Assembly: GCA_016875695.1 (NCBI GenBank)
Contig: VGPB01000001.1
Location: 1 to 30,677, forward strand
Direction of reading: 5' to 3'
Source of the DNA: Chloroflexota bacterium
GTDB taxonomy: Bacteria; Chloroflexota; Dehalococcoidia; UBA2979
DNA length: 30,677 nt
Shown piece after piece: positions 1 to 16,919 of this stretch; within the stretch, counting starts at the first letter, position 1; each line of letters opens with the position of its first letter. The translations under genes were made by a program, and so were the position numbers. Under the pieces are notes generated by a model, which saw nothing but the letters and a program-made list of their open reading frames with translations, was not told the DNA's origin and did not search any database.

Positions 1-127
1 AGCGACACCGCTGCCCCGTCCGCCCACCTCGATGGAGTGCCGTACGTCGAGCTGCACGCGCACAGCAACTACTCGCTGCTGGAAGGCGCCTCGCACCCGA
101 GCGAGCTCATCGCCCAGGCGCTCGCGC
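1..127 (+). repeat. Exact direct copy of the dnaE2 5' region (identical to 18549-18675)
   Basis: Base-by-base identity of 1-127 with 18549-18675; the copies diverge at 128 (g) versus 18676 (a). Encodes SDTAAPSAHLDGVPYVELHAHSNYSLLEGASHPSELIAQALA. Confidence 0.97.
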
Positions 128-346
128 GACCGAGAAAAGGCGTCTGCGCAGGTAACCGAAATTCCCGAAAGATTAGCCTCCCTACTGACGAGTCGCTGGA
201 CTCCAGCATTTGCCGCGCTGCCCCGAAAATCGCGGAGCTGAGACTGCAACTTCGACCGCAGACCGTTAGGGTGGCAGGACTCTGCACCAGCGGATGTCCT
301 GACCTTGCGGGGGCAGCAAAGACGGTGACTTCTGCCTAAGCGTGGT

Positions 347-360
347 AGGACGTTGGGCCC
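347..360. promoter_or_regulatory. Dos-box-like palindrome AGGACGTTGGGCCC
   Basis: 10/14 match to the DosR core GGGACTWWAGTCCC; upstream of the 471/765/1275 genes. A weaker copy GTGACTTCTGCCTA lies at 325-338. Confidence 0.45.
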
Positions 361-470
361 TCGAAAGTCACATCGCCTTGGTCGATCGTTCACTCACAGG
401 TCGTGGGGCCCAGGGGTTATAGGACCGATCTAACGGAACCGTTCCGACGGAACTCGTGAGGAGCGCTAAC

Positions 471-686
471 GTGACAGATATTCAGCTTCAATGGGGATTT
501 ACTGTTGCCGCGCTCTTCGTGCTTCTCGGCATAACTGCCTTGAACAACGACGCGATCACAATCAGTGCGTCGCTTGCGCTACTGGCTGCGGGGTTTCTAG
601 CGTTCCCACGGCAGCGCAGCCGTGGTGCGCTCGCCGCGACTGCTGCGCTTTGTGTGGCGGCTATCATCGCGTCGATAGCGCGGTGA
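471..686 (+). CDS. Small hydrophobic membrane protein (71 aa)
   Basis: GTG at 471 preceded by GAGGAG; almost entirely hydrophobic, about three TM-like segments. Confidence 0.55.
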   Translation: MTDIQLQWGFTVAALFVLLGITALNNDAITISASLALLAAGFLAFPRQRSRGALAATAALCVAAIIASIAR

Positions 687-764
687 TGACACGAGCCTCC
701 GATCCGACGCGTGACTATGCCTCATCCGCGGGCGTCGAGTGGGCTGATGAGAAGGAAGAGTGCC

Positions 765-1199
765 GTGAAGATCTTCGTGGCCTACGACAGAACCGATGGC
801 GCCGCGGCAGCACTCGACGCGGCTGTCGGCATTGCCGAGCAATGCGCAGGTAGCCAGGTGCGGATCGTCCATGCCCTCAACCCGCTGATCGACGCAGCGG
901 AGATCTTCGCCTCGTCAAATCACGAGGCGATCACCATACGTCGAGATGAAGAGCTCACAGCGCTGCACGAAGTCGCTTCGAAGATTTCGAGTACCGAGGT
1001 CGAGCCAGCTGTCGAAGTGCTGCGCCGCGGAGAGAGCCCGGGCGCGGGTATCGCACGACTCGGCAACGAGTGGCAAGCCGACTTAATCGCAGTCGCAAGT
1101 CGGCGGACAGGTCGTCTCTCCGGCGCACTTCTGGGTAGTGTGGCTGCCGAAATCTTTCGCAACAGCGAAACTCCGCTTTTGCTCGTCCATCCCGCATGA
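765..1199 (+). CDS. Universal stress protein (single USP domain)
   Basis: KIFVAYD start and ADLIAVASRRTG...LLGSVA...PLLLVHP end; GTG at 765 after AAGGAAGAG. Confidence 0.92.
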   Translation: MKIFVAYDRTDGAAAALDAAVGIAEQCAGSQVRIVHALNPLIDAAEIFASSNHEAITIRRDEELTALHEVASKISSTEVEPAVEVLRRGESPGAGIARLGNEWQADLIAVASRRTGRLSGALLGSVAAEIFRNSETPLLLVHPA

Positions 1200-1274
1200 C
1201 CTCGACCAGCAGACCTTGACCGCGACAGCAACCTGGCCCCGAAAGTGCTCAGGCCGCCAAGCATAGGAGCAGCT

Positions 1275-1838
1275 GTGACCTGGACACTTGATAGGTCCCG
1301 CTCTTCCGTTGAATTCGCTGTCACCCACATGCACGTGAGCATAGTGCGTGGACATTTTGCGCAGTTCGAGGCCGATGTCACCCTCGAACCGAGTGATCCG
1401 TCACGCTCCTCAGTGAAGGCGACAATCGATGTCGCGAGCATCACGACCGGCGACGCGGGCCGGGATCGCCAGCTCCGTTCGGCCGCTGTGTTAGACGCGG
1501 AGCACTTCCCATCGATCGAATTCCAAAGCAGCGATGTATTGCCGCTCGCCGCCCAGACATTCTGGGTCCGCGGTGGGCTCACGATTCACGGCACGACGCG
1601 AGAGGTCGTGTTGGAAGGAAGAATCGAGGAACAGCCCGAAGCTGAGTCTGGCACGCCCCGCACAGCCACGTTCGTGGTGTCCACAGAAGTCGATCGACGC
1701 GACTTCTTCCAGATCCCGATGAGCGCCGGCGAACCGTTCATTGGTCGGAGCGTTAACATCCGCGTGCTGGCGCACCTGATTGATGACCCCCAGAGGCACG
1801 CAGAAGGCCAGCCGCACAAGGCAGCAGGAGATAGTTGA
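1275..1838 (+). CDS. YceI family (polyisoprenoid/lipid-binding) protein
   Basis: WTLDRSRSSVEFAVTHM...VRGHF, SITTGDAGRDRQLRS...FPSIEFQS, GGLTIHGTTREV; AGGAG RBS before GTG 1275. Confidence 0.92.
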   Translation: MTWTLDRSRSSVEFAVTHMHVSIVRGHFAQFEADVTLEPSDPSRSSVKATIDVASITTGDAGRDRQLRSAAVLDAEHFPSIEFQSSDVLPLAAQTFWVRGGLTIHGTTREVVLEGRIEEQPEAESGTPRTATFVVSTEVDRRDFFQIPMSAGEPFIGRSVNIRVLAHLIDDPQRHAEGQPHKAAGDS

Positions 1839-1983
1839 CGCGCGCTGTAATAGGCCGCCCGTTCTGACACCTTCATGACCCCCGCCAGCGCCCTTCCACA
1901 CCCGATGGGGCAGTAGGCGGCCTTGCTTCGGCGTGCACTGACGGTCCGTGTGACTCTTGTTCTCTTTCCATATCATTCAGGCC

Positions 1984-3372
1984 ATGGATCCGAAGATGCT
2001 GGCGGCGTTGGTAGATCGGGCACCGGATGGCGTGCTCCTCGTCGATCCGGGTGGCCGAATTACCTTCGCGAATCCCCACACGCAGGTGCTGTTCGGCTAC
2101 TCCCCCGATGAGCTGCTGGGCAAGACGATCGAATTTCTTGTGCCTGAACGATTCCGTGGCCGTCACATCGGACACCAGGCTGCCTTTCACGCCCGCCCAT
2201 CCACGCGCCCGATGGGGTCCGGACTAGAACTCACCGCGCTGAGGAGCGACGGCACAGAGTTGCCCGTCGAGATCAGCCTCAGTCCAATTCCCACCGAGGA
2301 AGGCCAATACGTCGCGGCGATCGTACGAGACGTCTCAGAACGGAAGGCGTTGGAAGACGACTTGCGCCGTTCCGAGGAGCGCTACCGGCTGCTCGCGGAA
2401 CAAGCGCGAGACATCATTTATCGCATCCGCCTCCTTCCTGCGCCGCCACGTGTCGAATACATGGGGCCTGCCGCGACTGCCCTCACAGGGTTCTCGCCCG
2501 AGGACCACTACGCCGATCCGGATCTCATCCTGCGGATCACCGATCCCGCACAACGGGCGCTCTTCGAGCGCCTGATGTCTGACCCCGATTCGGTTCCGAA
2601 CCCCTTCATGACACAGATCCACCGCCGAGACGGAATAGTGGTCTGGCTGGAGCACCAGTTCAGCATCATCCGTTCCAACGGCCGCCCTGTCGCCATCGAA
2701 GCTATCGCTCGTGACACCACAGCCCGAGTGCTATTGGAAGAGGAACGACAGCGACTGCATGCCGAGAACGAACTCGTTGAGGACCGCGAGCGCATCGCGC
2801 GCGACCTCCACGACGGTGTCATGCAGGCGCTGTACGGCGTCGGCCTGAGTCTGGTGCAACAGCGGGGGCAGGCACTGCCCCCTGAAGTGCAAGCAGGCCT
2901 CGATGAAGCGGTGTCGGCGCTGAACGGGGTGATTGCCGACATCCGTGCATACGTCATGGACCTGCCACGGGATAACGGCGAGGGCACGCTAGCGAGCGAG
3001 CTCACTCGGCTAGCACATGACCTCTCAGCAAATGGCCCAACGAGCGTAACGGTGGATGTAGGCGACACGAATCCCATGCTCTCCGAAGCCCAGTTGCACT
3101 CGCTCCTACAGATCACGCGTGAGGCGCTCTCCAACGTTGTGAGACACGCTGCCGCCACGACCGCTCGTGTAACGCTGAAGGACGACCCGCGAGGACTGAT
3201 TCTCGAAATTCGCGATGATGGCCATGGATTCGACCCCGCGGCGAACGTGAGTGAAGACCATCTGGGGTTGCGTAACATGCGCGCCCGCGCGGAGCAGTTG
3301 GGTGCGGACTTTGAAGTGGAGAGCTCGCAAGGAGCGGGAACTGTGGTGCGCCTCAGACTTCGCCCTGTCTAA
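1984..3372 (+). CDS. PAS-PAS sensor histidine kinase, HisKA_3 (NarX/DosS-type) with HATPase_c
   Basis: H-box DRERIARDLHDGVMQ; N-box REALSNVVRHA; G boxes IRDDGHGF, HLGLRNM and GAGTVV; two N-terminal PAS/PAC domains. Confidence 0.95.
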   Translation: MDPKMLAALVDRAPDGVLLVDPGGRITFANPHTQVLFGYSPDELLGKTIEFLVPERFRGRHIGHQAAFHARPSTRPMGSGLELTALRSDGTELPVEISLSPIPTEEGQYVAAIVRDVSERKALEDDLRRSEERYRLLAEQARDIIYRIRLLPAPPRVEYMGPAATALTGFSPEDHYADPDLILRITDPAQRALFERLMSDPDSVPNPFMTQIHRRDGIVVWLEHQFSIIRSNGRPVAIEAIARDTTARVLLEEERQRLHAENELVEDRERIARDLHDGVMQALYGVGLSLVQQRGQALPPEVQAGLDEAVSALNGVIADIRAYVMDLPRDNGEGTLASELTRLAHDLSANGPTSVTVDVGDTNPMLSEAQLHSLLQITREALSNVVRHAAATTARVTLKDDPRGLILEIRDDGHGFDPAANVSEDHLGLRNMRARAEQLGADFEVESSQGAGTVVRLRLRPV

Positions 3373-3381
3373 GCGGAGCCT

Positions 3382-4041
3382 CTATTGCTGCTTACGCATC
3401 CTTCGCTCGGTGGCCATGGCGGCTGCCTGGGAGCGGCGCTCCACATTCAACTTTGCGTAGACCTGCGAGACATAGTTCTTCACGGTTTTCTCACTCAGGT
3501 GCAGGCGCTCGCCGATCTGTCGGTTGGTCAAACCGTCAGCGATCATTTCGAGAATGCGGTCTTCTTGAGGTGTGAGCAGTGAGAAGTTGTCGTCCGCCGG
3601 GTGTGCGCCCGCGCCCTTCCGTAGCCGTCCGAGCAATGTAGCGGCGAGTTTCGGGTCGAGCAGTGAGCCGCCCGCTCCCACCGCCCGGATCGCTTCCTTC
3701 AGGCGTGCCGGGTTCAGGTCCTTGAGCAGATAGCCCGCGGCACCAGCCATGACCGCTGAGAACAGAGCGTGATCATCCGCATACGAGGTCAGAATAAGGA
3801 CGTTGGCGCCGGGGACCTCCGCGCGAATATCACGGCATGCCTCGATCCCCGACCCGTCGGGCAGCCGCAGATCCATGACGACGACGTCCGGCTGGAGACG
3901 CTGCGCAAGCGCGACGCTCTCAGCCACGGTGCCAGCTTCACCCACGATCTCGATCCCAGGTTCCGCGAGCACCGCGCGCAAGCCACGACGCACGATTTCG
4001 TGGTCATCGACCAACATCACCCGCAGCGGTTGGTCTGGCAT
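3382..4041 (-). CDS. NarL/LuxR-family response regulator, DosR/DevR-like
   Basis: REC motifs (LVDDHEIVRRGL, VVMDLRLPDGSGIEAC, LILTSY, GYLLKD) plus HTH LTPQE...GLTNRQI...LSEKTVKNYVS...ERRSQAA, matching my recollection of mycobacterial DosR throughout. Confidence 0.95.
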   Translation of the reverse strand: MPDQPLRVMLVDDHEIVRRGLRAVLAEPGIEIVGEAGTVAESVALAQRLQPDVVVMDLRLPDGSGIEACRDIRAEVPGANVLILTSYADDHALFSAVMAGAAGYLLKDLNPARLKEAIRAVGAGGSLLDPKLAATLLGRLRKGAGAHPADDNFSLLTPQEDRILEMIADGLTNRQIGERLHLSEKTVKNYVSQVYAKLNVERRSQAAAMATERRMRKQQ

Positions 4042-4209
4042 GAGCCCCTCCGGCGTGCACCAACCAGACAATAATCGATGGCAGCGGCAGGCAGGCCACA
4101 CTCCGCCTGCCGCACTAACTGACCTTCGCTCATTTCGCAGCGGTCACGAGCGTCAAGAACGCCTAAGCCGTGGTACGGAGAGCATCGCGCGCGGCAATGG
4201 CACTGCCAC

Positions 4210-4296
4210 CGGACGAACGTCCCTCGAGGTACTGGACCAATGTCGTGGCGAAATTCGGGCATAAGCCCCCCGAGCGCGACTGGTGACCAACGTCCC
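4210..4296. promoter_or_regulatory. Three Dos-box-like palindromes in the divergent regulator/USP promoter
   Basis: CGGACGAACGTCCC (4210-4223), TGGACCAATGTCGT (4233-4246) and GTGACCAACGTCCC (4283-4296). Confidence 0.6.
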
Positions 4297-4377
4297 GCCG
4301 AAATACCGCCCTCGGACACTCATTTGCTCTCGAGAAAGCGACGACGCTGCGCAGTGCAGTTACAGGAGGATTCAGGC

Positions 4378-4869
4378 ATGTACCAAAAGATTCTGTTGAC
4401 CGTCGACGGCTCGACGCTGTCCGAGGCGGCAATCTCACAGGCAGCCTCCCTGGCCGCGGGCGCCGACACTGAGGTGGTCGTGCTCGAGGTGGTCGACACG
4501 CTCGATACGCTGCGGCGCCAGGCGCTTGGAGAGTACGAGCTCACTGATGGTGACCGGGCCCGGATCGAGGCGTTGGCAGAGGAGACCAATTTCACACGAC
4601 GCGACCGCGCACGCAGCGAAGTCGAATCAGCCGAAAGCGAGCTCCGCACGGCAGGCGTGCAAAACGTGCGGACTGTCATCGCTGAAGGCCTTGCCGGCAA
4701 CGAGATCGTCGATCTTGCCACGAAAGAGGGCGTGGACGCGGTCGTGATGGCGACTCGCGGTCATGGTGGGCTCGGCCGCGAGGTCGTCGGCTCGGTAGCC
4801 GAGTTTGTCCTCCGCCACGCTGGCCGAGCTGCCGTCGTCCTCGTGGGGCCGCGGTCGTCGCGCGAGTAA
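4378..4869 (+). CDS. Universal stress protein (single USP domain)
   Basis: MYQKILLTVDGS...DAVVMATRGHGG...VGSVAEFVLRHA; AGGAGG RBS. Confidence 0.95.
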   Translation: MYQKILLTVDGSTLSEAAISQAASLAAGADTEVVVLEVVDTLDTLRRQALGEYELTDGDRARIEALAEETNFTRRDRARSEVESAESELRTAGVQNVRTVIAEGLAGNEIVDLATKEGVDAVVMATRGHGGLGREVVGSVAEFVLRHAGRAAVVLVGPRSSRE

Positions 4870-4874
4870 CTCGG

Positions 4875-5804
4875 ATGCTCGAGCGATTCCTCGTTCCGCT
4901 CGATGCCACCGTGAACGCGGCCGGAATTGTCCCGCACGTCACTGAGCTGGCGAGGCGGATGGGCCAACCAGTGGTCGTACTTTCCGTCATCCCCAACGCG
5001 TTCGAGGGAGATGCGAGCCCCCTGAGAGATGATTTTGCAAGCCAGAAGCGTCGATTTTTTGAGTTTCGTAAGGGCCTCGCGCGCAGGTACCTGAACAAGA
5101 TATGTGCACAATTCCGAAACGACGGTGTGTGGGCGACCTCTACGGTCGTGACAGGCGATGAGGCAGCCGGGATTCTCTCGACCGCGGAGGCGAAGGGCGT
5201 CGGCCTGATCGCGATGTCCACGCACGGCCGAACCGGCGCCCAGCGCTGGTTCATGGGTAGCGTGGCCGACAAAGTGATCCGTACCGCCTTGACGCCGGTT
5301 CTGCTCGTGCGTCCAACTGCGGAATCAGACGAACCCGCGCCACTATTCACCGCGCTCCTCGTCCCACTCGACGGATCGGCGATGGCGGAAGCAGCGCTCA
5401 CGTATGCAACGTTCTTGGCCAAGAACCTTGGGGTACCGGTCACGCTGATCCGTTCATTGGATTTGAGCTGGGCGATCGCTAGCGATGGGCTCGGCTGGTT
5501 TGAGAGCGTCTCAGTCGATCTTGTCAGGGCCGCCGAGTCAGATGCGCACTCGTACCTCGAACACACGGCGGATCGGTTGCGGGGCGAAGGTATCGAGGTC
5601 GGCACATCGCTCTCACAGGGAGCCTCGCCGGCCGCCGAGATCATCAAGCTCGCGGATGTGACGCCCGGCGCCCTGGTCGTCATGACAACGCACGGTCGAT
5701 CGGGTGTCAGCCGAGCCCTCCTCGGCAGCGTGACTGACAAGGTGGTCCGCAGCTCCGCTGCACCCGTCCTCGTCATCCCGCCAGGCGCCGAGGGGCCGAT
5801 GTGA
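4875..5804 (+). CDS. Universal stress protein (tandem USP domains)
   Basis: Two domains: FLVPLD...MSTHGRTG...MGSVADKV and LLVPLDGS...MTTHGRSG...LGSVTDKVVRSS. Confidence 0.95.
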   Translation: MLERFLVPLDATVNAAGIVPHVTELARRMGQPVVVLSVIPNAFEGDASPLRDDFASQKRRFFEFRKGLARRYLNKICAQFRNDGVWATSTVVTGDEAAGILSTAEAKGVGLIAMSTHGRTGAQRWFMGSVADKVIRTALTPVLLVRPTAESDEPAPLFTALLVPLDGSAMAEAALTYATFLAKNLGVPVTLIRSLDLSWAIASDGLGWFESVSVDLVRAAESDAHSYLEHTADRLRGEGIEVGTSLSQGASPAAEIIKLADVTPGALVVMTTHGRSGVSRALLGSVTDKVVRSSAAPVLVIPPGAEGPM

Positions 5805-5868
5805 GCGACAGGGCGGTGCTCAGTACCCCGCGGATGGTGCATTACGGAATGGCCGGAAGGACAAGGCT

Positions 5869-6222
5869 ATGACCCAAGACCATTCCGCCGACGCGTCTGC
5901 TCCCAATCACTCGGTCCGTGCGGAAGAGCAGCAACGCGCTATTTCCGAGGAGATGCGCCAGAGCGCGGAACTCGAACGGCAGTCCGCTGAGACTGAACGC
6001 GAGATCGCGGAGGAGGAACGCTTCTCCGCAGAACGCGGGCGCATGAACGCAGAAGACCTACGACAGGCTGCTGAGCGCGCCAGAGCGGCGGCCGAGGCCG
6101 CACGAATCGCCGCAGAGAACGCACGGCGAAGCTTCGACGAGATGTTCCGCCTGGCCGGGGAGGTGATCGAGCTCTTCCAGGCATCGCATCACTCGAAGGG
6201 CTCAGCGAAACGCCCCGAGTGA
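5869..6222 (+). CDS. Hypothetical coiled-coil protein (117 aa) with heptad R-x-x-A-E repeats
   Basis: Glu/Ala/Arg-rich 7-residue periodicity (RQSAETEREIAEEERFSAERGRMNAEDLRQAAERARAAAEAARIAAENARR); follows the USP operon on the same strand. Confidence 0.65.
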   Translation: MTQDHSADASAPNHSVRAEEQQRAISEEMRQSAELERQSAETEREIAEEERFSAERGRMNAEDLRQAAERARAAAEAARIAAENARRSFDEMFRLAGEVIELFQASHHSKGSAKRPE

Positions 6223-6414
6223 GCACCATAGTGAACCCCAGCGGCGCTGCAGCCGTGGCCGAGCGCCCGGCCCGTTAACCCACGCTTCTCGGCCAGCGAT
6301 GCAATAACCCGGAGTCATCGGAGGGCGCCCAAGCACGCGAGAGCACATCGACATTCCCCGGGGAACCACGTGCGTCACAGCAACTCTCGGGCTAACGAAG
6401 TTGCTCGCTCGTGG

Positions 6415-7311
6415 CTACCGATCGCTCGGCACCACCGCAGGCGGTACAACAACGACTCCTGCCTCTCCCACGTGCTGCAGCACGTGGTCCGCGACCGAGC
6501 CGATCATCTGTGCGGCGCTGCCACGCCCGCGACCTTGCGACGAGAGCACGATGATGTCGCATCGTTGCCGCTCGGCTGCATCGACAATCGCCGTGCCGGG
6601 AGTCCCGGCGGTGACAGTGGCGACGATGTTGTGTAGTCCGGCCTCCCGCAGCGTGGTCACCACGGCGGCGGTGTCCTGCCGCGCCTCATTAAGTTCGGCC
6701 GATACAAGTCGAGTCAACGCGGCATCGTCCAGCAACTCCTCGCTCAGGTGGTAGCCCGCTGGGGTCTTGGCGGAGCGCAGCTGGGCTGCATCGTCGGTCA
6801 GCCGCAACAGCACGATGCCCGCCCCGGTGATAGACGCTAAACGCTGCGTGAATTCGATCGCCCCGGCGTTTGCCGCTGAGCCGTCCAGGGGCAGAAGGAT
6901 ACGTTCGAAGATCTTCGTCCCCGCGATCATCGGGCGGCAGAACAAGACCGGGACACGATGCGTATTCCTCGCCACGTAATCCGCGACCGACCCAAGGAAG
7001 TGACTCGTCGAGCCCGTCCCCTTAGTCGACATCACGATCAGATCCACGCCCATCTCATCAGCAATCTCGACGATCAACGGGCCGGGACTGCCAGCCCGCA
7101 TGAGCGGCGTGACGAGGTGAGGTGCGAGTGCCCGCTTCACGCGATCCAACGAATCGGTCGCGTCCTTCACTTCCATGCTCGCCGGGCCAGCGTGTGGATT
7201 GGTGATGCACAGCGCGATCACCTCGGCACCGGCAGCCTGCGCCAGGGCGTGAGTGGTGGGCACGGCGACATCCGCCATCGCTGATCCGTCGTGGGTGAGC
7301 AGTACCTTCAT
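6415..7311 (-). CDS. Universal stress protein (tandem USP domains)
   Basis: MKVLLTHDGS...MSTKGTG...LGSVADYV and ILLPLDGS...LSSQGRG...IGSVADHVL. Confidence 0.95.
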   Translation of the reverse strand: MKVLLTHDGSAMADVAVPTTHALAQAAGAEVIALCITNPHAGPASMEVKDATDSLDRVKRALAPHLVTPLMRAGSPGPLIVEIADEMGVDLIVMSTKGTGSTSHFLGSVADYVARNTHRVPVLFCRPMIAGTKIFERILLPLDGSAANAGAIEFTQRLASITGAGIVLLRLTDDAAQLRSAKTPAGYHLSEELLDDAALTRLVSAELNEARQDTAAVVTTLREAGLHNIVATVTAGTPGTAIVDAAERQRCDIIVLSSQGRGRGSAAQMIGSVADHVLQHVGEAGVVVVPPAVVPSDR

Positions 7312-7439
7312 TGGTGCGCCTTTCTGCATCATTCGCGCTAGGAACGCGCTGCGCTTACTCAGGTGCGAGGGGTCCGAACCTCACGCTCAACCTCAATTCG
7401 CGAGCACAGTCATTCTCCGACGCCCTTGGGAGCACGACA

Positions 7440-7453
7440 GGGGCTTTCGTCCT
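7440..7453. promoter_or_regulatory. Dos-box-like palindrome GGGGCTTTCGTCCT
   Basis: 11/14 match to GGGACTWWAGTCCC; lies between the divergent USP (7311) and DUF998-like (7546) starts. Confidence 0.5.
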
Positions 7454-7545
7454 TACGACGTCTGACTTACGCCACATGGCAAGGAACGGCGACCTCCATA
7501 CATTCGAGACAGGAGCGCACTCCGGAGAGGCGAGGAGACAAGCAG

Positions 7546-8163
7546 ATGGCAACCCGTGCACTCCTCGTGTGTGGTGCGCTCTCTAGCGTTGTGTACTTCG
7601 TGAGTATCGATGTCCTCGCGCCGCTGCTCTTCCCCGATTACCACGAGTACGAAGGCCAGATGGTGAGCGAGCTCTTCGCCAGTGGCGCGCCCACGCGCCC
7701 GATGCTGGTCTGGGCGGGGGTTCTGTATAACGCGCTCGTGCTCGCGTTTGCGCTGGGCACATGGGAGGTCGGCCGCAATTCGCGAGTAACTCGCCTCACC
7801 GCTGTAGCGATTGGCGTGTACGGTCTCGCGAGCACGGTCGGCGGCTTTCTAGCGCCCATGGATCTGCGCTCTGCGGGCCTGTCCGCTGCGACGTGGGTGC
7901 ACATCGGCGCCACGGCGGTACAAGGCATCGCCCAGTTGGCCGTGCTCGCGACCGGCGCGTTCGTGCACGGTCTGCGATTCCGTGTCTACTCGTTCGCGAC
8001 GCTTGGCCTCGCGCTTGCCTCCGGACTGTGAGCAGGCTACCAGTCGTCTCACCTGCCCGCCCCGTGGCTGGGCGTCACGGAGCGCATCAGCATCTACGTC
8101 TACATGCTGTGGATTTTGATCCTGGCGCTCTCGCTACTTCCTCGCGCGAAGTCGACCCGCTGA
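7546..8163 (+). pseudogene. DUF998-like membrane protein with an in-frame premature TGA at 8029-8031
   Basis: DUF998-like N-terminus (Y...QMVSELFASGAPTR); the frame continues past the TGA as AGYQSSHLPAPWLGVTERISIYVYMLWILILAL, the typical family C-terminus (W-x-G-x-x-ER), ending at TGA 8161-8163. Confidence 0.75.
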
Positions 8164-8187
8164 CCAGCGTTGCTGTAAAGGCGGAGC

Positions 8188-8201
8188 AGGACGTTGGTCA
8201 C
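8188..8201. promoter_or_regulatory. Dos-box-like palindrome AGGACGTTGGTCAC
   Basis: GAC-N-WW-N-GTC core ~90 bp upstream of the 8290 gene; near-identical to the 347-360 site. Confidence 0.5.
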
Positions 8202-8289
8202 AAGGAACACATGCGCGATGTCACTGCGAGCCGTCCGCCACGCGCGATAGTTTGTCGTTATCCCGCGTTCCACCTCAGAGGATCACACC

Positions 8290-8595
8290 ATGTCTTACGT
8301 CCGAATCTCGTTCGTGCGCCCACTCCATGGGAGGGAGGACGCGGTCCGATCCTCGATTGATAAGTTAGTCGAGTACTACGGTGGTCAACCCGGGCATCTC
8401 TCCGGGTACCGCCTCGAACACGTCGATGGCTCGCTTCGATTTGGACGCATCGGGATCTGGCGCAGCGAAGAGGACGCCAATAAAGCTGCCCAGTCCGAAC
8501 ACGACCTCGCGCTTCGCTCTGAACTGAATGGGCTGGTCGAGCAGGGGTCGCACGAGGAGTTCTCCTTCGAGGGGACCTCTTCAGCAGCGCTCTGA
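8290..8595 (+). CDS. Antibiotic-biosynthesis-monooxygenase (ABM)-like dimeric alpha-beta barrel protein
   Basis: 101 aa with an ABM-like pattern (VRISFVRP..GRED...GQPGHLSGY...IGIWRSEEDA...H); GAGGA RBS. Confidence 0.75.
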   Translation: MSYVRISFVRPLHGREDAVRSSIDKLVEYYGGQPGHLSGYRLEHVDGSLRFGRIGIWRSEEDANKAAQSEHDLALRSELNGLVEQGSHEEFSFEGTSSAAL

Positions 8596-8629
8596 ACGCG
8601 TTCATCGAAGCCGCTCATAGTCGAGTCAC

Positions 8630-9478
8630 TCAGGACGCGTGGTCTGTCGGCTCATTCCGGACGCCTTTGACCGGGCCGGGCATGTGCGCTTCGCGGGCCG
8701 TCCACACCGCTAACGCGATGAACAACGCCGCGAATGCGGATAGGACGAGCGCTTCACTCGCCGAGCCCAGCGGGTCCTGCCTTAGGAGCATCGTCCAGCC
8801 CATGGCTGCAACGGCGAAGCCAACGAGCGCGAACCAGGCCACCACTGCTCGCATCGCTCTCTCGGCCAATGGAGCTGCTGTCAGCAGTCCACCTGCTGCG
8901 CAGACTGCCACCGGGACGACGATCCCAAGATCGAGGAAGGCGATCAACCAGAAGGCAGTAGGCGAGTCTAGGTACATTGCTGTCGGTGCACCTGACCACA
9001 CAGAGACAAGCACGGGCACATAGCGCAGTACCAGAAACGCAGCGACCAGCAGCATCAGCAGAGCGAACCCTGGCCGCCTTCTTGGTTCCGTAATGGTCGC
9101 CGTGCCGGACCACGCCATACACGCAAGCATCCACCCGAGGATGAAAAGCGCTATGTGCAGAATGAAGAAGCGCTCGTTGTTGCCATCCAGGCCGACGTAA
9201 TCTGCGCCCAGGATGTACTGCGGCATCATGTACGCCGTGAGGAGCGCAGGCCCGATGATCAGCAGGCCGGCGATGCGACTGCCTCGCAACGCCAGCCACG
9301 CCCCGAATAACAGCAGAGGGGCAGCGGCAACGAGATTCACCGCGTCGAGGGCTATCGCCTGATTCTCGTACGAAGGCGTGTATCGATATCGAATAATCCC
9401 GAGCGCGAGCGGCCCCAATAGCGAGTTCGTGCCGAGCCCGAGAGCGAGCGCAACGGCCCCTCCGGCCAGCCGGTTCAT
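8630..9478 (-). CDS. Hypothetical polytopic membrane protein (282 aa)
   Basis: About eight hydrophobic segments; start overlaps the upstream stop (ATGA, 9475-9478), which suggests translational coupling. Confidence 0.85.
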   Translation of the reverse strand: MNRLAGGAVALALGLGTNSLLGPLALGIIRYRYTPSYENQAIALDAVNLVAAAPLLLFGAWLALRGSRIAGLLIIGPALLTAYMMPQYILGADYVGLDGNNERFFILHIALFILGWMLACMAWSGTATITEPRRRPGFALLMLLVAAFLVLRYVPVLVSVWSGAPTAMYLDSPTAFWLIAFLDLGIVVPVAVCAAGGLLTAAPLAERAMRAVVAWFALVGFAVAAMGWTMLLRQDPLGSASEALVLSAFAALFIALAVWTAREAHMPGPVKGVRNEPTDHAS

Positions 9479-10086
9479 CTCTCGCTGCGCTCCGCGCGCA
9501 CCTTCAAGTTCAACAGCATTTGGCGGGTCATCACCAGCGCCGCCGCATCGAGCACAAGCATCGCCAGCCTCCAGAACGTGCCTGAGGGTGTCAGCGCCCT
9601 ATTCCTCGAGATCAGCCGGGTGCGATGGTCGCTGATCGGATCGAGCATGAAGGTCCACGACCAACCGCCGCCCACAGGGAACCTATCGCCGAGCACCAGA
9701 CTGCGCATGGGATCGACGGCCTTCACCGGCCAGTCACCGTGGCCCATGGGGATGATGTCGCCAGCTTTCAGCAGCTGGAACTGCGGGAGGATCTCCTGCG
9801 CGCTTGGAGCGTCGAGGAAGCCGAACAGACGGTCGAGCGCATCGAAGCTGTACAGGCCGCCACGGCCGCGCCCGATCTGTACGAGCCACGGCCAAATCGC
9901 CGCAGCCCCGGCATCGATTGTGACTGCCTTGGTGGTGACATAGTTCGGAGTTCCGATGATGTCGTCACCTGGCAACGCTCGAGACACCTCCTCATCAGTC
10001 GCTCCCCAGCGTAGACCCCATGGGCGCAAGACTGCGAGATAGGCGCCCACTCCGAGTAGCGGTGCGACGACACCAACGCGCCTCAT
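9475..10086 (-). CDS. SRPBCC/START-like family protein
   Basis: WGATDEEVSRALPGDD...TKAVTIDAGAAAIWPWLVQIGRGRGGLYSFD...WSWTFMLDP...RTRLISR signature. Confidence 0.8.
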   Translation of the reverse strand: MRRVGVVAPLLGVGAYLAVLRPWGLRWGATDEEVSRALPGDDIIGTPNYVTTKAVTIDAGAAAIWPWLVQIGRGRGGLYSFDALDRLFGFLDAPSAQEILPQFQLLKAGDIIPMGHGDWPVKAVDPMRSLVLGDRFPVGGGWSWTFMLDPISDHRTRLISRNRALTPSGTFWRLAMLVLDAAALVMTRQMLLNLKVRAERSER

Positions 10087-10130
10087 TTAAGCCTTCGTTC
10101 TCAAGGGAGACATGGGCTACTGCGACTCGC

Positions 10131-11447
10131 TCATTTCACGATGAAGGCGGTCACCATGCCGTACATTCCCTGCTCGTTCTCGGCGTGAGAAAGGATGTGG
10201 CAATGGAACGCCCACACGCCTAGCTCGCTCGCGCTCACAAGCACGTCGATACGCTGCCCAGGCGCCACCATCACTGTGTCCTGCTGATAGCGTTGGGGCA
10301 CCGAGTTGCCATCGACCGCGATCACGGTCTGCACGAGCCCGTGTAGGTGCATGGGATGGATCTGCAGGCCCTCATTCATATAGCGCACGCGTACCAGCTC
10401 GTTCTGCTTCGCGACGATGGCGTGTGTCGCAGGGAATCCCTTGCCGTTAATCGTGTATCCCAGGGGCCCGTCGTTGAGGACCATCACTTCGTCGTGCGCG
10501 ACGGCCGGTTCGTCCTTGCCATCCACGATGAATGCACCAAGGAGCCCGGCTGGCACCTGGACAGCCGCGTTCATATGTGAGTGGTACATGTGGGAGCCGG
10601 CGTTACGGACAGTGAACTCGTAGTTGAATGACTGACCCGGCAGCACCAACGGCTGCGTGATTCCGGGGACCCCATCCATATCGTTTGGCACTACCAGTCC
10701 GTGGAAGTGCATCGCCGTCGACTCGGTGAGCTGGTTGTGGAGAACGATTCGCACGCGATCGCCGAGCGCGACGTGGATGGTGGGACCGGGCACGGTCCCG
10801 TTGTACGCCATCGCCTGACGCGTCTCGCCCGGTGACACTTCCCACGCAATCTCCGAAGCGGTGATATCGAAGACCTTCACGCCGTTTTCGACGCGAGGAG
10901 CCAGCAGCTGAGCGCCTTCGCCTTTCGTAGCTGCCGGGAACGCCTTGATGCCCGCGAGGTAGGAGGCGTCCATTTTCGCGCTCTGCGCCGGCGTCATGCT
11001 CAACTGCGAAGCGCCCGCAACCGCGGCGTGTGCAGTGTGATCCGTCGACGTCCCCGCCTCAACTGCGAGTGCAGCCTGCATGCCGGCTTCTCGATGGCCG
11101 GGTAGTGAGCAGAAGAGAGTGATCGATGAGGCCACGGCGCCAACGTTTAGGACCGCCGTCTCCCCCGACGCCAGTCTTGGTGTCTTATGGCCATCGGACA
11201 TGGTGAGGTCATGCTCGGTCCCGCCGCCATTGTGCACGCGAAGCGTGACGTCCGTGCCCGCTGGTACGCTAAGCGAACCCGGCTTGATGAACAGATCGCC
11301 GAGTTCTACGTCGAGCGTGCGAGTGGTTAGGGCATCAGGTGCCGCGGCAACTGAAGCTCCCTGTCCAAGTGCAGCCGTCGATACGAGCAGTGCCGAGAAG
11401 CCGAGAATCGCGCCGGCGACCGCCATCGCGGCATACCCATTTCGCAT
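10131..11447 (-). CDS. Secreted multicopper oxidase: N-terminal cupredoxin fused to a two-domain MCO
   Basis: Signal-like N-terminus; cupredoxin T1 ligands H...CSLPGHREAGM; MCO motifs MHFHG, YHSH, HPMHLHG and FHCHILSH...GM. Confidence 0.92.
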   Translation of the reverse strand: MRNGYAAMAVAGAILGFSALLVSTAALGQGASVAAAPDALTTRTLDVELGDLFIKPGSLSVPAGTDVTLRVHNGGGTEHDLTMSDGHKTPRLASGETAVLNVGAVASSITLFCSLPGHREAGMQAALAVEAGTSTDHTAHAAVAGASQLSMTPAQSAKMDASYLAGIKAFPAATKGEGAQLLAPRVENGVKVFDITASEIAWEVSPGETRQAMAYNGTVPGPTIHVALGDRVRIVLHNQLTESTAMHFHGLVVPNDMDGVPGITQPLVLPGQSFNYEFTVRNAGSHMYHSHMNAAVQVPAGLLGAFIVDGKDEPAVAHDEVMVLNDGPLGYTINGKGFPATHAIVAKQNELVRVRYMNEGLQIHPMHLHGLVQTVIAVDGNSVPQRYQQDTVMVAPGQRIDVLVSASELGVWAFHCHILSHAENEQGMYGMVTAFIVK

Positions 11448-11542
11448 CTGCTTCCCCTTCTCAGCAGCGGCCTTGGTACCGCGGCACTTCGAATACCGAC
11501 GTTCAGAATCGGCTGCCGGGCCAGGCAACGCCCGCGTAACCG

Positions 11543-12019
11543 CTAGTCCTTCGGAGTTGGCCTCACGATGAGAAGGGGCGTGCCCGTGAGATGGCGAAGC
11601 ACGTAGTCGGCGACCGAGCCTAGGACTGCGCGTTTGAAGCCTCCGCGCCCGTGCGAGCCCATAACCACCACGGACGCATGGACGCGCTGCGCCTCCTCGA
11701 CGATCGTGTCGCCGGGCACGCCACTGCAGACTCGGGTTTCCACGTTGCTCACACCAAGGCCGGACAGGGTGGCCCGTGCCGCTTCCAGGTTCGTGCTCGC
11801 GCCCTCGCGCTGGCCGTCGAGGATCAAGTCCACAACGTCCGGATTGCTCGCGTAGAACGCTGGGCTCGTACTGCCCATACGGGTAATGACTAGGCCTGCA
11901 TCATCAATCACTTCAATGACCGTCACAGTCCCGGTGGGATCGGCCAAACGCGGCACCTCTGCGAGGACGGCTGTACTTGCCTCCGACCCATCGACAGCGA
12001 TCAAAACGTTGCGATACAT
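11543..12019 (-). CDS. Universal stress protein (single USP domain)
   Basis: MYRNVLIAVDGS...VVVMGSHGRGGFKRAVLGSVADYVL with the canonical G-2x-G-9x-GS motif; GGAG RBS. Confidence 0.95.
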   Translation of the reverse strand: MYRNVLIAVDGSEASTAVLAEVPRLADPTGTVTVIEVIDDAGLVITRMGSTSPAFYASNPDVVDLILDGQREGASTNLEAARATLSGLGVSNVETRVCSGVPGDTIVEEAQRVHASVVVMGSHGRGGFKRAVLGSVADYVLRHLTGTPLLIVRPTPKD

Positions 12020-12099
12020 AGCAGCTCCTCTGGTGGTTGACCGTCACACGGTCTCTGATCCCGCGGCTAGTCCGAAGGTAGGAAGGCAAGTCGTCCAAA

Positions 12100-12113
12100 A
12101 GGACTTTTGTCAC
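12100..12113. promoter_or_regulatory. Dos-box-like palindrome AGGACTTTTGTCAC
   Basis: 11/14 match to GGGACTWWAGTCCC; ~80 bp upstream of the USP start at 12019. Confidence 0.55.
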
Positions 12114-12152
12114 CCAGAACAGACCGTGCGAGCACTCTCACCGCGGTGTTGC

Positions 12153-13472
12153 TCAGCTATCGCCGCCTGATGGCGCGCGATCGCCGCGCTGCATCCGACC
12201 GAACCAGGTCATCACGCCAGCGGCAGCGATCGCACAACCGACGAACCAGGCAAGAGGCGGCAACAGCATGAGCATCACGCCGGCGGTCACCAATCCGACG
12301 AGCGTTGGGATCGGCCATTCGCGTGCGCCGGGACGGACAGTGATGGGGCGGGGCCAGGCAGGCAGTATCCGACGCAGGCGGAGCAGGGCGAGGTTCACCG
12401 CGAGAAATTCGACGAATACGGTGAAGTCCGTGAGCGCCGCCGCAATCTCAATGTCGCCTCCGAGTGCGGTAGCGCACGCGCCAGCTGCTACGGCCCCGGC
12501 CGCGAGCTGCGGCGCTCCGCTACGCCTCCCCACCTGGGAGAACAAGGGCGGCAGCCACTCGCGCGAAGCCAGGCTGAAAACGATCCGGGACGCAGCCGTG
12601 AGCAACAGCAACGTAGTGTTCAGCGTCGATGCCAGAGCGATCCAGACGACGACCGTCGAGGCTCCCGCACCGCCCTGACTGTGCAGCACCAATGCGAGCG
12701 GACGTTCCGAGCTGGCGAGTAGGCGCCAATCGACGGCGCTCACAGCGACTACGCCAACGACTGCGTAAAGAATGGCTGAAACGGCCAGGGAGAGCAGAAG
12801 CGCCCGTGGAATCACCCGCGCCGCTTCGCGGGTCTCCTCGGACAGCGTCACGACCTCGTCGAATCCGATGAATGCGAAGAAGACTAGCGACGACGCCGCG
12901 AGGACCCCGGCTAAGCTACCCTCGGTGAGTGGTCGGCTGCCCACTTCGGGCGCGCCCGCCACTATCACTATCAGGAGCCCTCCTACCTGGAGCATTGCGA
13001 GCGCTGTAGACACCCAGATCGACCGCTCGATGCCACTGACGACCAGAGCCAACAGGGCGAGCAGCATGGCGACGGCGGCGAGGGACACGTTGATATCGAT
13101 GAACTCGCGAAGATACGTTGCGAACCCAAGCGCCACAGCCCCGGCGGCAATGGCATTCCCTGTCGCCATCAGCCAACCCGCGAGGAACCCCCACACATCA
13201 CCGAAGGCCCGACGAGCGAATTCGGACTCCGCGCCAGCAGACGGAAACATACCCGCAAGCTCTGCGTAGCCGAGACCTGTGCAAGCGGCGACCAACGCTG
13301 CGAGCAAGAACGCAGCCCACAACAGGCTCCCGGCGTGGGCTGCTGCCTCACCAACGAGGACGTATATCCCGGCGCCAATCATGATCCCGACACCGGAGAC
13401 CGTGGTCTGCCAGAGGCTCAGACTGCGCCTCAGGTTGCCAGGCGGGACTGCCGGAGACTGTGGCCCCTGCAC
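12153..13472 (-). CDS. APC-family amino acid permease
   Basis: GVGIMIGAGIYVLVG, YAELAGMFPSAG, VFFAFIGFDEVVTLSEE motifs; about 12 TM segments. Confidence 0.93.
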   Translation of the reverse strand: MQGPQSPAVPPGNLRRSLSLWQTTVSGVGIMIGAGIYVLVGEAAAHAGSLLWAAFLLAALVAACTGLGYAELAGMFPSAGAESEFARRAFGDVWGFLAGWLMATGNAIAAGAVALGFATYLREFIDINVSLAAVAMLLALLALVVSGIERSIWVSTALAMLQVGGLLIVIVAGAPEVGSRPLTEGSLAGVLAASSLVFFAFIGFDEVVTLSEETREAARVIPRALLLSLAVSAILYAVVGVVAVSAVDWRLLASSERPLALVLHSQGGAGASTVVVWIALASTLNTTLLLLTAASRIVFSLASREWLPPLFSQVGRRSGAPQLAAGAVAAGACATALGGDIEIAAALTDFTVFVEFLAVNLALLRLRRILPAWPRPITVRPGAREWPIPTLVGLVTAGVMLMLLPPLAWFVGCAIAAAGVMTWFGRMQRGDRAPSGGDS

Positions 13473-13474
13473 CG

Positions 13475-14185
13475 CTACCGCCGGAGGCCACTAGGCCCGC
13501 TGCGAGAGCGCATGACTACCCCAATCACCACAGCCAGAAGGAGGGCACCGAGCCATGTGCCGGAGTCGGTGACGATAAAGCCCACGGCTACCGCGAGCAG
13601 CAAGGTCAGAAACGCAACGACACCGGAAGGGACTCCACCTTCTTCGGACCAGCCGAGGGCAGTGGTGACCCGCGGCATGATCCACCGATCTACGCCGTAC
13701 GTTCCTGCAGTGCTACCCACGAGCACGATTGCGAGCTCGAGTACGAGCATCTGCGGATTCGCGGAGGTGGTGCCTGCGGCGAGAAACATGAAATTCAGGA
13801 ATGCGGCGCTGAGGGCCGTCAACCGCGTGCAGAGCCCAATGATGAGAGCGAAACCAGCGAGCAGTTCGCCCCACGTCACGAGGTTCGCGAAGAGGGCAGC
13901 ATGTGGCAGAACGACGTGCTGCGCGAACCACGTGAACCACGGTTGAACCTCGGGATGGGCTCCGGTCGCTTTGCCAAGCGCGCCGTTGATGAATCCGGCT
14001 ACAGCGCCACCCACAGGCGGCTCGGTCCAACCGGCAGCGCCGATCTTCTCCTGCGCACCGCGAAGCCACTCCGCTCCCAAGATCAGCCGAACAAACAGCC
14101 ATAGCGCTGGCGCGGCCACTACCGACGCAATGCCCGCGTATCCGACACCGCCGCTAACGTTCGTTACGCGCTCGATTGTTGCCAT
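13475..14185 (-). CDS. DoxX/DoxD-family membrane protein with a C-terminal TM extension
   Basis: LFVRLILGAEWLRGAQEK, LVTWGELLAGFALIIGLCTRLTALSAAFLNFMFLAAGTTSANP, GTYGVD motifs. Confidence 0.9.
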   Translation of the reverse strand: MATIERVTNVSGGVGYAGIASVVAAPALWLFVRLILGAEWLRGAQEKIGAAGWTEPPVGGAVAGFINGALGKATGAHPEVQPWFTWFAQHVVLPHAALFANLVTWGELLAGFALIIGLCTRLTALSAAFLNFMFLAAGTTSANPQMLVLELAIVLVGSTAGTYGVDRWIMPRVTTALGWSEEGGVPSGVVAFLTLLLAVAVGFIVTDSGTWLGALLLAVVIGVVMRSRSGPSGLRR

Positions 14186-14276
14186 GTAAACCCCCGCTCG
14201 GTAGGAGGACACCTGCTCCTGCGCACTATCGCGTCTCACGTAGACCGCCGGCAGGGAAGGCCTTCCGGAATCGCAC

Positions 14277-14343
14277 ATGACGTTCGTCACTGCCGAGGTA
14301 CTCGAGGAGGCCTCGGTCCCACCGGTCTCGTGACGTTCGTCGC
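14277..14343. promoter_or_regulatory. Two Dos-box-like sites forming a direct repeat of TGACGTTCGTC
   Basis: ATGACGTTCGTCAC (14277-14290) and GTGACGTTCGTCGC (14330-14343) between the divergent doxX-like and 14396 genes. Confidence 0.55.
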
Positions 14344-14395
14344 TACCGACCCTTATCGGTCTGAACGACGCTCCTCTTGGAGAAGGAGGTGGACC

Positions 14396-14557
14396 GTGTG
14401 GGAGTACGTGGTTGGTGGAGTGATCGCGACCGGGGGCACCGCGTTCGCGCTATTCAACGCTTGGGTTTCCGAGCGCGATGACCGTGTTCGCAAAGCCGAG
14501 GAGCGAACCACCCGCTTGGAGGCAGATCACCACCACGAGCCTTCCGCCGCTGCGTAG
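14396..14557 (+). CDS. Small protein (53 aa) with an N-terminal TM helix and a charged/His tail
   Basis: Strong AAGGAGGT RBS before GTG 14396; MWEYVVGGVIATGGTAFALFNAWVSERDDRVRKAEERTTRLEADHHHEPSAAA. Confidence 0.6.
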   Translation: MWEYVVGGVIATGGTAFALFNAWVSERDDRVRKAEERTTRLEADHHHEPSAAA

Positions 14558-14619
14558 GCGCGACGAGCGGCGCAGCCCGATCCACGTGTCGTTGGAAGGC
14601 CCCGCCCGAACTCTGGCTC

Positions 14620-14639
14620 TGGGATCATTTTGGGATCAT
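14620..14639 (+). repeat. Tandem 9-bp direct repeat TGGGATCAT; possible integrase arm-type sites
   Basis: TGGGATCAT at 14620-14628 and 14631-14639, about 110-130 bp inside the tRNA fragment. Confidence 0.45.
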
Positions 14640-14750
14640 GACGCGCCGTTAAGGACCAGACGGATTGCTACGACCCAGACAAGAACGCCTTACAGACAGC
14701 CGATTTGGAGACGGAGCGCTACCAGACGGAAGCTGTGATACGGCTTCTAG

Positions 14751-14799
14751 CACTCTGTCACGGTGGAGAGCGTCGGTTCGAATCCGATCGGGGTCGCCA
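14751..14799 (+). tRNA. 3' fragment of tRNA-Asp(GTC), non-functional; attR-like site
   Basis: Anticodon loop CTGTCAC (GTC at 14757-14759), T-arm GTCGG-TTCGAAT-CCGAT, acceptor 3' strand CGGGGTC, discriminator G and CCA. The upstream sequence has no D-arm or acceptor 5' strand. Confidence 0.88.
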
Positions 14800-14822
14800 C
14801 AGCCTCCTCGGCGCACGCCGCC

Positions 14823-15683: not shown

Positions 15684-15806
15684 CGCGACCTCCTCCGCCG
15701 AACGCCGCGCGCAGCATACCTGCGCGGCGTGCACGGCGCGGCGGCGCCAAAAGAGGCTACTCGAAAGTCGCGATGGCAAACGTCACCGCGAACGAGCGGC
15801 ACCAGA

Positions 15807-16682: not shown

Positions 16683-16862
16683 GGCACCCTCCATTGCGAC
16701 TCGCCCTGGAGACGTTACGTCCCGAAGCGGGTGCAGCGATGCCCGTGCGGCGCGCGATCGATCGGTTCACGCTCGCCCTCTCGTCGAGCCCTACCCAAGG
16801 CTGCGGCGTGAAGGGAGCAAGCCGAGCGTAACGACCTGAGCCGCCCGTCACGGCAACTGACC

Positions 16863-16891
16863 TTGTCATCGAACAAGTGTTCTGGTACCAT
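16863..16891 (+). promoter_or_regulatory. Sigma70-type promoter with a LexA (SOS) box in the spacer
   Basis: -35 TTGTCA (16863-16868), 17-bp spacer, -10 TACCAT (16886-16891); CGAAC-AAGT-GTTC (GAAC-N4-GTTC at 16871-16882). Confidence 0.85.
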
Positions 16892-16919
16892 GCCCGTTGC
16901 CCTTTGGCGGGGGTACACC

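Follow-up and report, generated by a model that had tools for sequence, protein, structure and literature searches.

A predicted compact DevR/DosR-type stress regulon with a probable haem-PAS sensor kinase on a strain-variable tRNA-Asp segment of a freshwater Chloroflexota genome

The DevR/DosR response regulator of Mycobacterium tuberculosis and its kinases DosS and DosT, whose sensor halves are of the GAF-GAF type, control a regulon rich in universal stress proteins (USPs) that has become the paradigm of a bacterial hypoxia response. The operator has been described by the consensus TTSGGGACTWWAGTCCCSAA (PMC2275270) and in the degenerate form NNNGGGHCNWWNGNCCCBNN, in which G6 and C8 are invariant (PMC2947987). 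Haem-PAS sensors are coupled to other outputs, namely a HisKA kinase with FixJ in FixL, a phosphodiesterase in DosP and a one-component HTH protein in FG214 of Fimbriimonas ginsengisoli. Here we describe a 14.6-kb block (positions 128-14750) of a 30,677-nt contig, VGPB01000001.1, from a Chloroflexota bacterium; the whole contig is referred to as the window. We interpret the block as a compact two-component stress regulon of the DevR/DosR type, a kind of circuit that is native to its bacterial family, placed on a low-GC, strain-variable segment at a tRNA-Asp hotspot, and it most likely arrived there as a block from a lower-GC relative of the same family; we consider this account as a whole probable. 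As anatomy, the circuit of sensor, regulator and predicted operators over USPs and redox and copper proteins is well supported by the sequence. Our literature search found no paper that links DosR to Chloroflexi in substance, and what appears to be new is the combination of a DevR-type regulator with a putative haem-PAS kinase in this phylum, as a self-contained and strain-variable block.

The window is the first contig (C1) of a metagenome-assembled genome (MAG) of 275 contigs (1.9 Mb, 72% GC, 90% complete) that originates from lake-water metagenomes. Gene identities were assigned with Pfam profiles; NCBIfam, which contains no DevR-specific model, was also scanned and gave no specific names for the window proteins, all of its matches to the regulator lying below their cut-offs. 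ARAGORN and Rfam were used to call tRNAs, and the kinase, the regulator, the multicopper oxidase (MCO) and one of the tandem USPs (USP3) were compared with the sequences in the PDB. The relatives comprised 25 sampled genomes of the family, and a DNA search with the block covered 400 genomes of the class. As independent assemblies we used Logan contigs from sequencing runs X1, X2 and X6, the last of which belongs to a separate study, together with JGI contigs. A preliminary description made from the sequence had proposed a mobile, DosR-like hypoxia and dormancy regulon in a probable Chloroflexota host, and the host assignment holds, since the nearest homologues of the kinase are all labelled Dehalococcoidia or Chloroflexota.

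The regulator (Pfam Response_reg 4e-26, GerE 2e-19) has M. tuberculosis DevR (3C3W) as its top PDB match, with 216 bits and approximately 52% identity over the full length, followed at a distance by VraR (137 bits), NarL (121), ChrA (107) and DesR (95). In the HMMER alignment to 3C3W the phosphorylation site is kept, Asp54 being accompanied by identical Asp8/Asp9, Thr82 and Lys104. The recognition-helix string EKTVKNYVS is identical to that of DevR and contains Lys179, Lys182 and Asn183, which we take, from DosR-DNA structure work, to be the residues that contact DNA bases. Regulators of the generic NarL type that neighbour HisKA_3 kinases in Streptomyces, Thermoleophilia and others share 32-47% identity with the regulator and lack this string, while two neighbour loci that possess it encode proteins of 49-57% identity. 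By its sequence, then, the regulator is specifically of the DevR/DosR type and not a generic NarL protein, and the preliminary description, which had named a grouping with generic NarL proteins as an outcome that would count against it, was right to call the protein DosR-like. It is the only DevR-type regulator that we found in the MAG.

The kinase and regulator genes are convergent, with 9 nt between them. The C-terminal half of the kinase carries the same HisKA_3 core as the mycobacterial kinases (HisKA_3 2.6e-10, HATPase_c 1e-13); its ATPase domain resembles DevS no more closely than VraS. The sensor half is built differently from DosS and DosT: Pfam detects no GAF domain in the protein and finds PAS_9/PAS_4 and PAS_3 instead. 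For the first PAS domain (PAS1) the best PDB match is FG214 (10JX, E 2e-20), followed by FixL (1e-12) and DosP, and the alignments to FG214 and FixL are free of gaps. The FG214 study (bioRxiv 10.64898/2026.03.15.711900) assigns His156 as the proximal ligand of the haem and His175 as the distal one, with Met172 as an alternative on the distal side. Judged from the alignment offsets, their counterparts in the kinase are His70, Gly89 and Met86; His70 also aligns with His200 of Bradyrhizobium japonicum FixL (BjFixL), the proximal axial-ligand position on the F-alpha helix, and both His70 and Met86 are invariant across 18 kinase homologues (43-76% identity). On the distal side the FG214 His175 position is occupied by Gly, and neither Arg206 nor Arg220 of FixL is conserved, Leu standing at the position of Arg220. 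PAS1 is thus likely to be a haem-PAS sensor of the FG214/FixL kind. The parallel to DosS/DosT drawn in the preliminary description therefore holds for the HisKA_3/HATPase_c core and the position beside the regulator gene, and fails for the sensor, a PAS-PAS module of probable haem-PAS type in place of haem-GAF.

The preliminary description had also noticed shared upstream palindromes, and these proved to be the most enriched palindrome of the block. In a scan without a preset motif (256 four-base half-sites, spacers of 0-8, one mismatch, 2,182 nt of island intergenic DNA), TGAC-N4-GTCA ranked first, with 8 matches in 6 of 8 regions compared to 0.75 ± 0.85 expected (z=8.6; the maximum over 200 shuffles was 4), and GACG-N2-CGTC, a version of this motif displaced by one base, and GGAC-N4-GTCC likewise ranked high. 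Five matches to the strict pattern KGACNNNNGTCM fall in the block, none of them within a called gene; elsewhere in the 1.9-Mb genome it occurs at 0.023 per kb, the block being about 14-fold denser. When three near-matches are counted, each of the eight inferred transcription units is preceded, at a distance of 80-170 nt, by a kGAC-N4-GTCm box (box positions 347, 4211, 4284, 7441, 8189, 12101, 14278 and 14331; Table 1). The G-A-C/G-T-C core, the 4-base spacing and the A/T-rich centre are shared with the DosR box, while the block has kGAC where the mycobacterial box has GGGAC, and the outer GGG/CCC bases are weaker. Enrichment is limited to the kGAC-N4-GTCm core: the looser pattern GGGACNNNNGTCCC with up to two mismatches is not enriched (19 found, 22.7 expected). 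As in M. tuberculosis, one of the boxes precedes the regulator gene itself, and autoregulation through the box at 4211 is possible.

Outside the block, 45 strict sites occur on the MAG contigs, nearly all within sequence of strong codon periodicity, and because of this we regard the boxes, and with them the regulon, as confined to the block within the assembled 90% of the genome. Four copies of the perfect 12-mer TGACGAACGTCA, its complement included, lie outside the island, a seeming excess that comes down to codons: two copies lie at the starts of ferredoxin genes (M-T-F-V-I) and the others deep inside long genes. The two ferredoxin genes are paralogous, of the 7Fe type (contigs C104:296 and C192:2672), and start with ATGACGTTCGTCAT, so that a perfect box covers the start codon. 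In M. tuberculosis fdxA is a member of the DosR regulon; we read the boxes at the ferredoxin starts as a coding coincidence, though the parallel may merit attention.

Every gene that the preliminary description had named is found in the block by Pfam, the ABM gene only as a weak match. The five USP genes include two that encode tandem proteins, giving seven USP domains, and an APC permease, a DUF998 protein and three proteins without family are encoded in addition. Together these features suggest a scheme in which a cytoplasmic kinase would sense a gas or redox signal through its N-terminal haem-PAS domain, with His70 as proximal and possibly Met86 as distal ligand, and would phosphorylate the DevR-type regulator, which in turn would bind the kGAC-N4-GTCm palindromes that precede its own gene and all seven other units by 80-170 nt. 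Under predicted control would then be the five USPs, YceI, the MCO, DoxX, the permease and small membrane proteins. The USP-rich set of predicted targets, including tandem USPs, is another feature in common with the mycobacterial system.

A role in hypoxia or dormancy would follow by analogy with M. tuberculosis, where USP-rich DosR regulons are the hypoxia paradigm. The same type of regulator could have been put to another use, answering oxygen exposure or oxidative or copper stress, and this we regard as a serious possibility, if one with somewhat less than an even chance. Several features speak for it: the predicted targets include an MCO with an extra cupredoxin domain, DoxD/DoxX, YceI and an ABM-like protein; the box ahead of the MCO gene is kept in a relative (G017) as well; the distal pocket, with Leu aligned to Arg220, is unlike that of the O2-sensing FixL; and a His/Met-ligated haem as in FG214 is a redox switch. 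Besides the hypoxia paradigm itself, the surroundings of the closest kinase homologue stand against it, since HSP20, GroEL and Lon at that locus point to a general stress set, and the sequence alone leaves the sign of the response unfixed. A gas or redox signal is likely.

Orthologues of the regulator with 66-84% identity occur in 11 of the 25 sampled family genomes, at native GC, and homologues in other families of the class show 54-57% identity. In the complete genome G003, the regulator, the permease, a USP, a kinase homologue and YceI lie within approximately 27 kb of uniform native GC, with a box about 100 nt upstream of the regulator (84-93 nt in two estimates). In G017 the regulator and kinase genes are adjacent, and at a distance of 14 kb lies an MCO gene that is preceded, by 35 nt, by a perfect box; the box precedes the regulator gene in G017, G167 and G132 also. 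The two closest metagenomic kinase homologues (76% and 68% identity, on JGI contigs) show the order kinase, regulator (at one locus only), USP and tandem USP, with HSP20, GroEL, Lon or ClpB nearby. The regulon type thus appears to be widespread in, and native to, this family of the class Dehalococcoidia. As a separate observation, the whole genome of G003 contains 202 strict box matches, chromosome-wide, compared to 116 for a reversed control, and in that genome the regulon may be dispersed rather than clustered.

The regulator is 84% identical to that of G132, 77% to that of G001 (over the residues available) and 76-79% to that of G003, and the corresponding values for the core protein DnaE2 are 76%, 75% and 69%. 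Because similarity to relatives tracks a core protein and the type is widespread in the family, any donor would have been a close relative and not a member of the Actinomycetota. With 52% identity, M. tuberculosis DevR is about as similar to the regulator as are the homologues of other Chloroflexota families, a pattern that points to a subfamily both old and shared; native occurrence and the core-like pattern of identity give no sign of actinobacterial origin.

The same pattern bears on whether there was any transfer at all. If the cluster is native and was inherited vertically, its low GC would have some other cause, and homologues of the regulator, the MCO, the permease and the USPs in many family genomes, the divergence from the same-genus genome G001 (regulator 76% and MCO 74% at the amino acid level, about core-like) and the parallel between the identity rankings of the regulator and DnaE2 are what this explanation would predict. 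We nevertheless judge it quite unlikely. The GC of the block lies 9 points, and the GC at third codon positions (GC3) 16 points, below the core, while the copies in relatives stand at native GC; the border falls exactly at a displaced part of a tRNA-Asp gene, where a sister species has other cargo; the strain of run X6 shows the core but hardly any island; and the same-genus regulator is not the closest one (over the same residues it is 77% identical, compared to 84% for that of another genus).

The composition of the block is distinct, as the preliminary description had reported. Its GC is 62.9% compared to 71.7% for 14801-30677, it holds the lowest 5-kb GC windows of the MAG (mean 71.3%, standard deviation 2.2), and its genes have a GC3 of about 0.74, compared to about 0.90 for the core genes beside it. 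Although neither ARAGORN nor Rfam calls a tRNA in the window, 14751-14800 on the forward strand matches the tRNA-Asp(GTC) genes of family relatives over their positions 29-77 with 96% identity, from the 5' strand of the anticodon stem through the terminal CCA, and the shift in GC and GC3 stops exactly there. From this homology the displaced tRNA-Asp 3' part is identified as the right border of the block. It adjoins the 3-hydroxybutyryl-CoA dehydrogenase gene (hbd) of the core. A direct repeat, TGGGATCAT-TT-TGGGATCAT, lies at 14620-14639, within the block and 110 nt away from the tRNA half. Stretches of 64-67% GC that extend over several kb occur elsewhere in the MAG, on contigs C13, C19 and C9.

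In a sister species (hbd 90% identical) the same site holds an 11.6-kb low-GC island. An intact tRNA-Asp stands between this island and core genes on one side; on the other, a 16-nt remnant that repeats the tRNA 3' end adjoins hbd, in the same place as the border of our block. A second sample of the sister species (L154) carries different cargo, with the restriction-modification genes missing. The far core flank of the sister locus matches contig C74 of the MAG, which ends approximately 220 nt short of the expected tRNA; the intact tRNA-Asp gene is missing from the MAG, and only one att-like copy is present in it. The different cargo at the same site and the match of the C74 flank argue that the site is a tRNA-Asp hotspot and that the block is one of its cargoes. 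The sister-species island (L146/L153, about 1.0-12.6 kb of L153) encodes type I restriction-modification HsdM/S/R, TspO, an epimerase and the CBASS pair CD-NTase and Cap15; contig C9 of the MAG carries a homologue (69% at the nucleotide level) of this epimerase gene. A 92-nt ARAGORN batch call of tRNA-Asp at C79:2946-3037 has coding-like sequence, was not reproduced and is probably false. Synteny is lacking around P0123, an hbd homologue of greater distance, which was uninformative.

Variation also occurs between closely related strains. In run X6, a strain that differs at 7 positions in 2,769 nt of core (99.7% identical) has almost no island depth; its core contig starts at 14751 after 12 unlike bases, and a second contig passes unbroken over 18675/18676. 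The horizontal acquisition at tRNA-Asp put forward in the preliminary description therefore looks supported by the composition shift, the other cargo of the sister species and the X6 core. Like other tRNA-linked genomic islands, the block combines low GC and a border formed by a tRNA 3' part from the anticodon stem with cargo that varies by strain and species, and the sister-species island is bracketed by an intact tRNA-Asp and a repeat; it differs from them in that its cargo is a complete regulatory circuit of a family-native type.

An assembly artefact, with the low-GC half being the DNA of another organism misjoined at a conserved tRNA sequence, would have to be considered for any fragmented MAG, as tRNA genes are common chimera points, and the ratio of island to core depth does vary among samples. 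The right junction is, however, covered without mismatch by a 13.4-kb Logan contig from another sample (2785-16210) and again, at 99.95% identity, by a contig of a further run (14513-16416); the left junction is repeated in X2 and in a JGI assembly; depths of island and flank are similar in X1 and X2; and the shared tRNA stretch of 50 nt is far below k=127. We consider such a chimera very improbable indeed.

The left border is of a different kind. Bases 1-127 (forward strand) repeat the 5' end of dnaE2 (18549-18675) exactly (BLAST, 100% over 127 nt). As 127 is the usual largest SPAdes k-mer, this copy is a 127-mer vertex of the assembly graph that joins dnaE2 at 18675 to base 128. A Logan contig of X2 runs through 17627-18548 and the 127 nt into 128-2808, the JGI contig L144 equals window positions 22-13372 and thus opens inside the 127-nt copy, with 106 bases of it, and no other predecessor of base 128 was seen in X1. 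The tRNA-derived att end of the preliminary description accordingly corresponds to the right border at 14751-14800; position 128 is not an att end but a junction to dnaE2, 3.9 kb downstream of that border. In the assembly graph an 18.5-kb loop results, consisting of the block, the tRNA half, hbd, a DM13-like gene, imuB and dnaE2', and it implies either flanking direct repeats of 3.9 kb or a circular or tandem form. The first alternative corresponds to a chromosome in which C74 and tRNA-Asp are followed by the block and its tRNA half, enclosed between two copies of 14801-18675; either alternative would explain the loop. Breaks of Logan contigs are unreliable markers of structural branches, as they occur also at unrelated places (2785-2814 in three runs). 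The imuB-dnaE2 cassette (16660-21880) is absent in the sister species, which has instead a 1.7-kb segment with one 460-aa gene between the DM13-like and RR-Hpt genes; this mutagenesis cassette is therefore itself variable, and the left junction of the island lies inside it.

Might the block be the cargo end of a self-mobile integrative element, with the integrase and an attL at the intact tRNA in an unassembled part? The tRNA 3' part from the anticodon stem to the CCA is a classic integrase attR, the intact tRNA-Asp and the last bases of the expected far flank are outside the assembly as described above, and the same site hosts another island in the sister species. The complete island of that species contains no gene with a recombinase Pfam match, and in three assemblies base 128 is preceded by the dnaE2 5' end alone and not by element DNA; together with the lack of a recombinase in the 30.7-kb window, this makes a self-mobile element unlikely in our judgement. 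The claim that the block is mobile is accordingly not borne out. A more speculative history is that the whole regulon, with sensor, regulator and all target operons and their operators, moves between related Chloroflexota as one cassette without an integrase of its own, and that the 18.5-kb loop is the trace of a circle excised aberrantly in one strain, which re-entered the chromosome of an island-free strain by homologous recombination and left the 3.9-kb direct repeats. We offer this only tentatively and would not bet on it.

Returning to a DevR/DosR-type regulon that reached the hotspot from a lower-GC relative of the same family without mobility genes of its own, several results weigh against it and should be read together. 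In the search of 400 class genomes no donor was found, the best DNA identity of the block being 75% and for single genes only, and the parallel between regulator and DnaE2 similarity is what vertical descent also predicts. Pfam detects no integrase, recombinase or other mobility gene in the window, and there is no second att copy in the MAG. Depths, which are noisy and GC-biased, show no clear two copies of 14804-18675 as the flanking-repeat model needs: in X1, 14944-18675 has 31 compared to about 25 for the island and 22 downstream; in X2, 14.8-17.3 kb has about 12.6 compared to 12-16 and 10-19; and in X6, the 14751-17519 contig has 8 compared to 11 and 8-13 downstream. Several regulator orthologues have no box within 300 nt upstream. 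The hallmark genes of the mycobacterial regulon hspX, acg and narK2 are absent from the block, as are nrdZ and tgs1, and in their place stand the MCO, DoxX, YceI and the permease; the USPs are generic and not close to the Rv2623-type proteins of M. tuberculosis, USP3 being not close to the solved mycobacterial USPs in the PDB comparison. Finally, an O2-dependent oxidase among the predicted targets fits hypoxia poorly, and a response to oxygen, redox state or copper fits at least as well.

Table 1. Genes and predicted operator boxes of the block and its core flank (window coordinates)
Feature	Position	Strand	Basis or remark
Near-consensus box GGACGTTGGGCC	347-358		upstream of the smORF-USP1-YceI-kinase unit
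USP1, single domain	711-1199	+	Pfam Usp 1.5e-21
YceI-like protein	1245-1838	+	Pfam YceI 1.1e-36
Sensor kinase: probable haem-PAS, second PAS, HisKA_3, HATPase_c	1957-3372	+	Pfam; database start at 1996
DevR/DosR-type response regulator, REC + GerE HTH	3382-4041	-	PDB 3C3W 216 bits; Pfam
Box GGACGAACGTCC	4211-4222		170 nt upstream of the regulator start
Box TGACCAACGTCC	4284-4295		83 nt upstream of USP2
USP2, single domain	4378-4869 (alternative start 4240)	+	Pfam Usp 2e-25
USP3, tandem USP	4875-5804	+	Pfam Usp 7.7e-46, two stretches
117-aa Glu/Arg/Ala-rich protein	5869-6222	+	no Pfam or NCBIfam match
USP4, tandem USP	6415-7332	-	Pfam Usp 4.4e-34, two stretches
Near-consensus box GGGCTTTCGTCC	7441-7452		between divergent USP4 and DUF998
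DUF998 membrane protein	7546-8031	+	Pfam 3.4e-11
Box GGACGTTGGTCA	8189-8200		89 nt upstream of the ABM gene
ABM-like small protein, weak	8290-8595	+	Pfam ABM 1.2e-4, 22.6 bits (cut-off 23.1)
282-aa membrane protein, no family	8630-9478	-	
203-aa protein, no family	9475-10086	-	
Two-domain MCO with extra N-terminal cupredoxin	10131-11528	-	Pfam; PDB two-domain laccases 2ZWN, 3G5W
USP5, single domain, heads the USP5-MCO-203aa-282aa unit	11543-12019	-	Pfam Usp 8.5e-26
Box GGACTTTTGTCA	12101-12112		81 nt upstream of USP5
APC-family amino-acid permease	12153-13472	-	Pfam AA_permease_2 1.6e-34
DoxD/DoxX membrane protein	13475-14290 (true start probably ~14185)	-	Pfam DoxD 7.4e-9, DoxX 1.8e-6
Two boxes, TGACGTTCGTCA at 14278 and TGACGTTCGTCG at 14331	14278-14342		upstream of DoxX-permease
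Core flank: hbd	14823-15779	-	Pfam; same flank in the sister species

Two features of the window lie further downstream, beyond the block. The acyl-CoA dehydrogenase gene (26702-28100) has no counterpart at that place in the otherwise collinear contig of the sister species, and a second GC dip (63-64%, 22980-24700) falls within or beside the SBP_bac_5 gene region, where an 888-aa frame has its family match only in the C-terminal 360 residues.

Besides the Chloroflexota host, a further difference from the mycobacterial system is that the entire set lies in one 14.6-kb block. The circuit would extend the DevR/DosR paradigm past the Actinomycetota to an uncultured freshwater family of Chloroflexota, with a probable haem-PAS kinase replacing haem-GAF, and the block may serve as a compact test case, with one kinase, one regulator and eight boxed promoters. 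Its strain-variable placement at a tRNA-Asp hotspot suggests that strains can acquire or lose an entire regulon in one piece, which would bear on how stress responses spread in natural populations.

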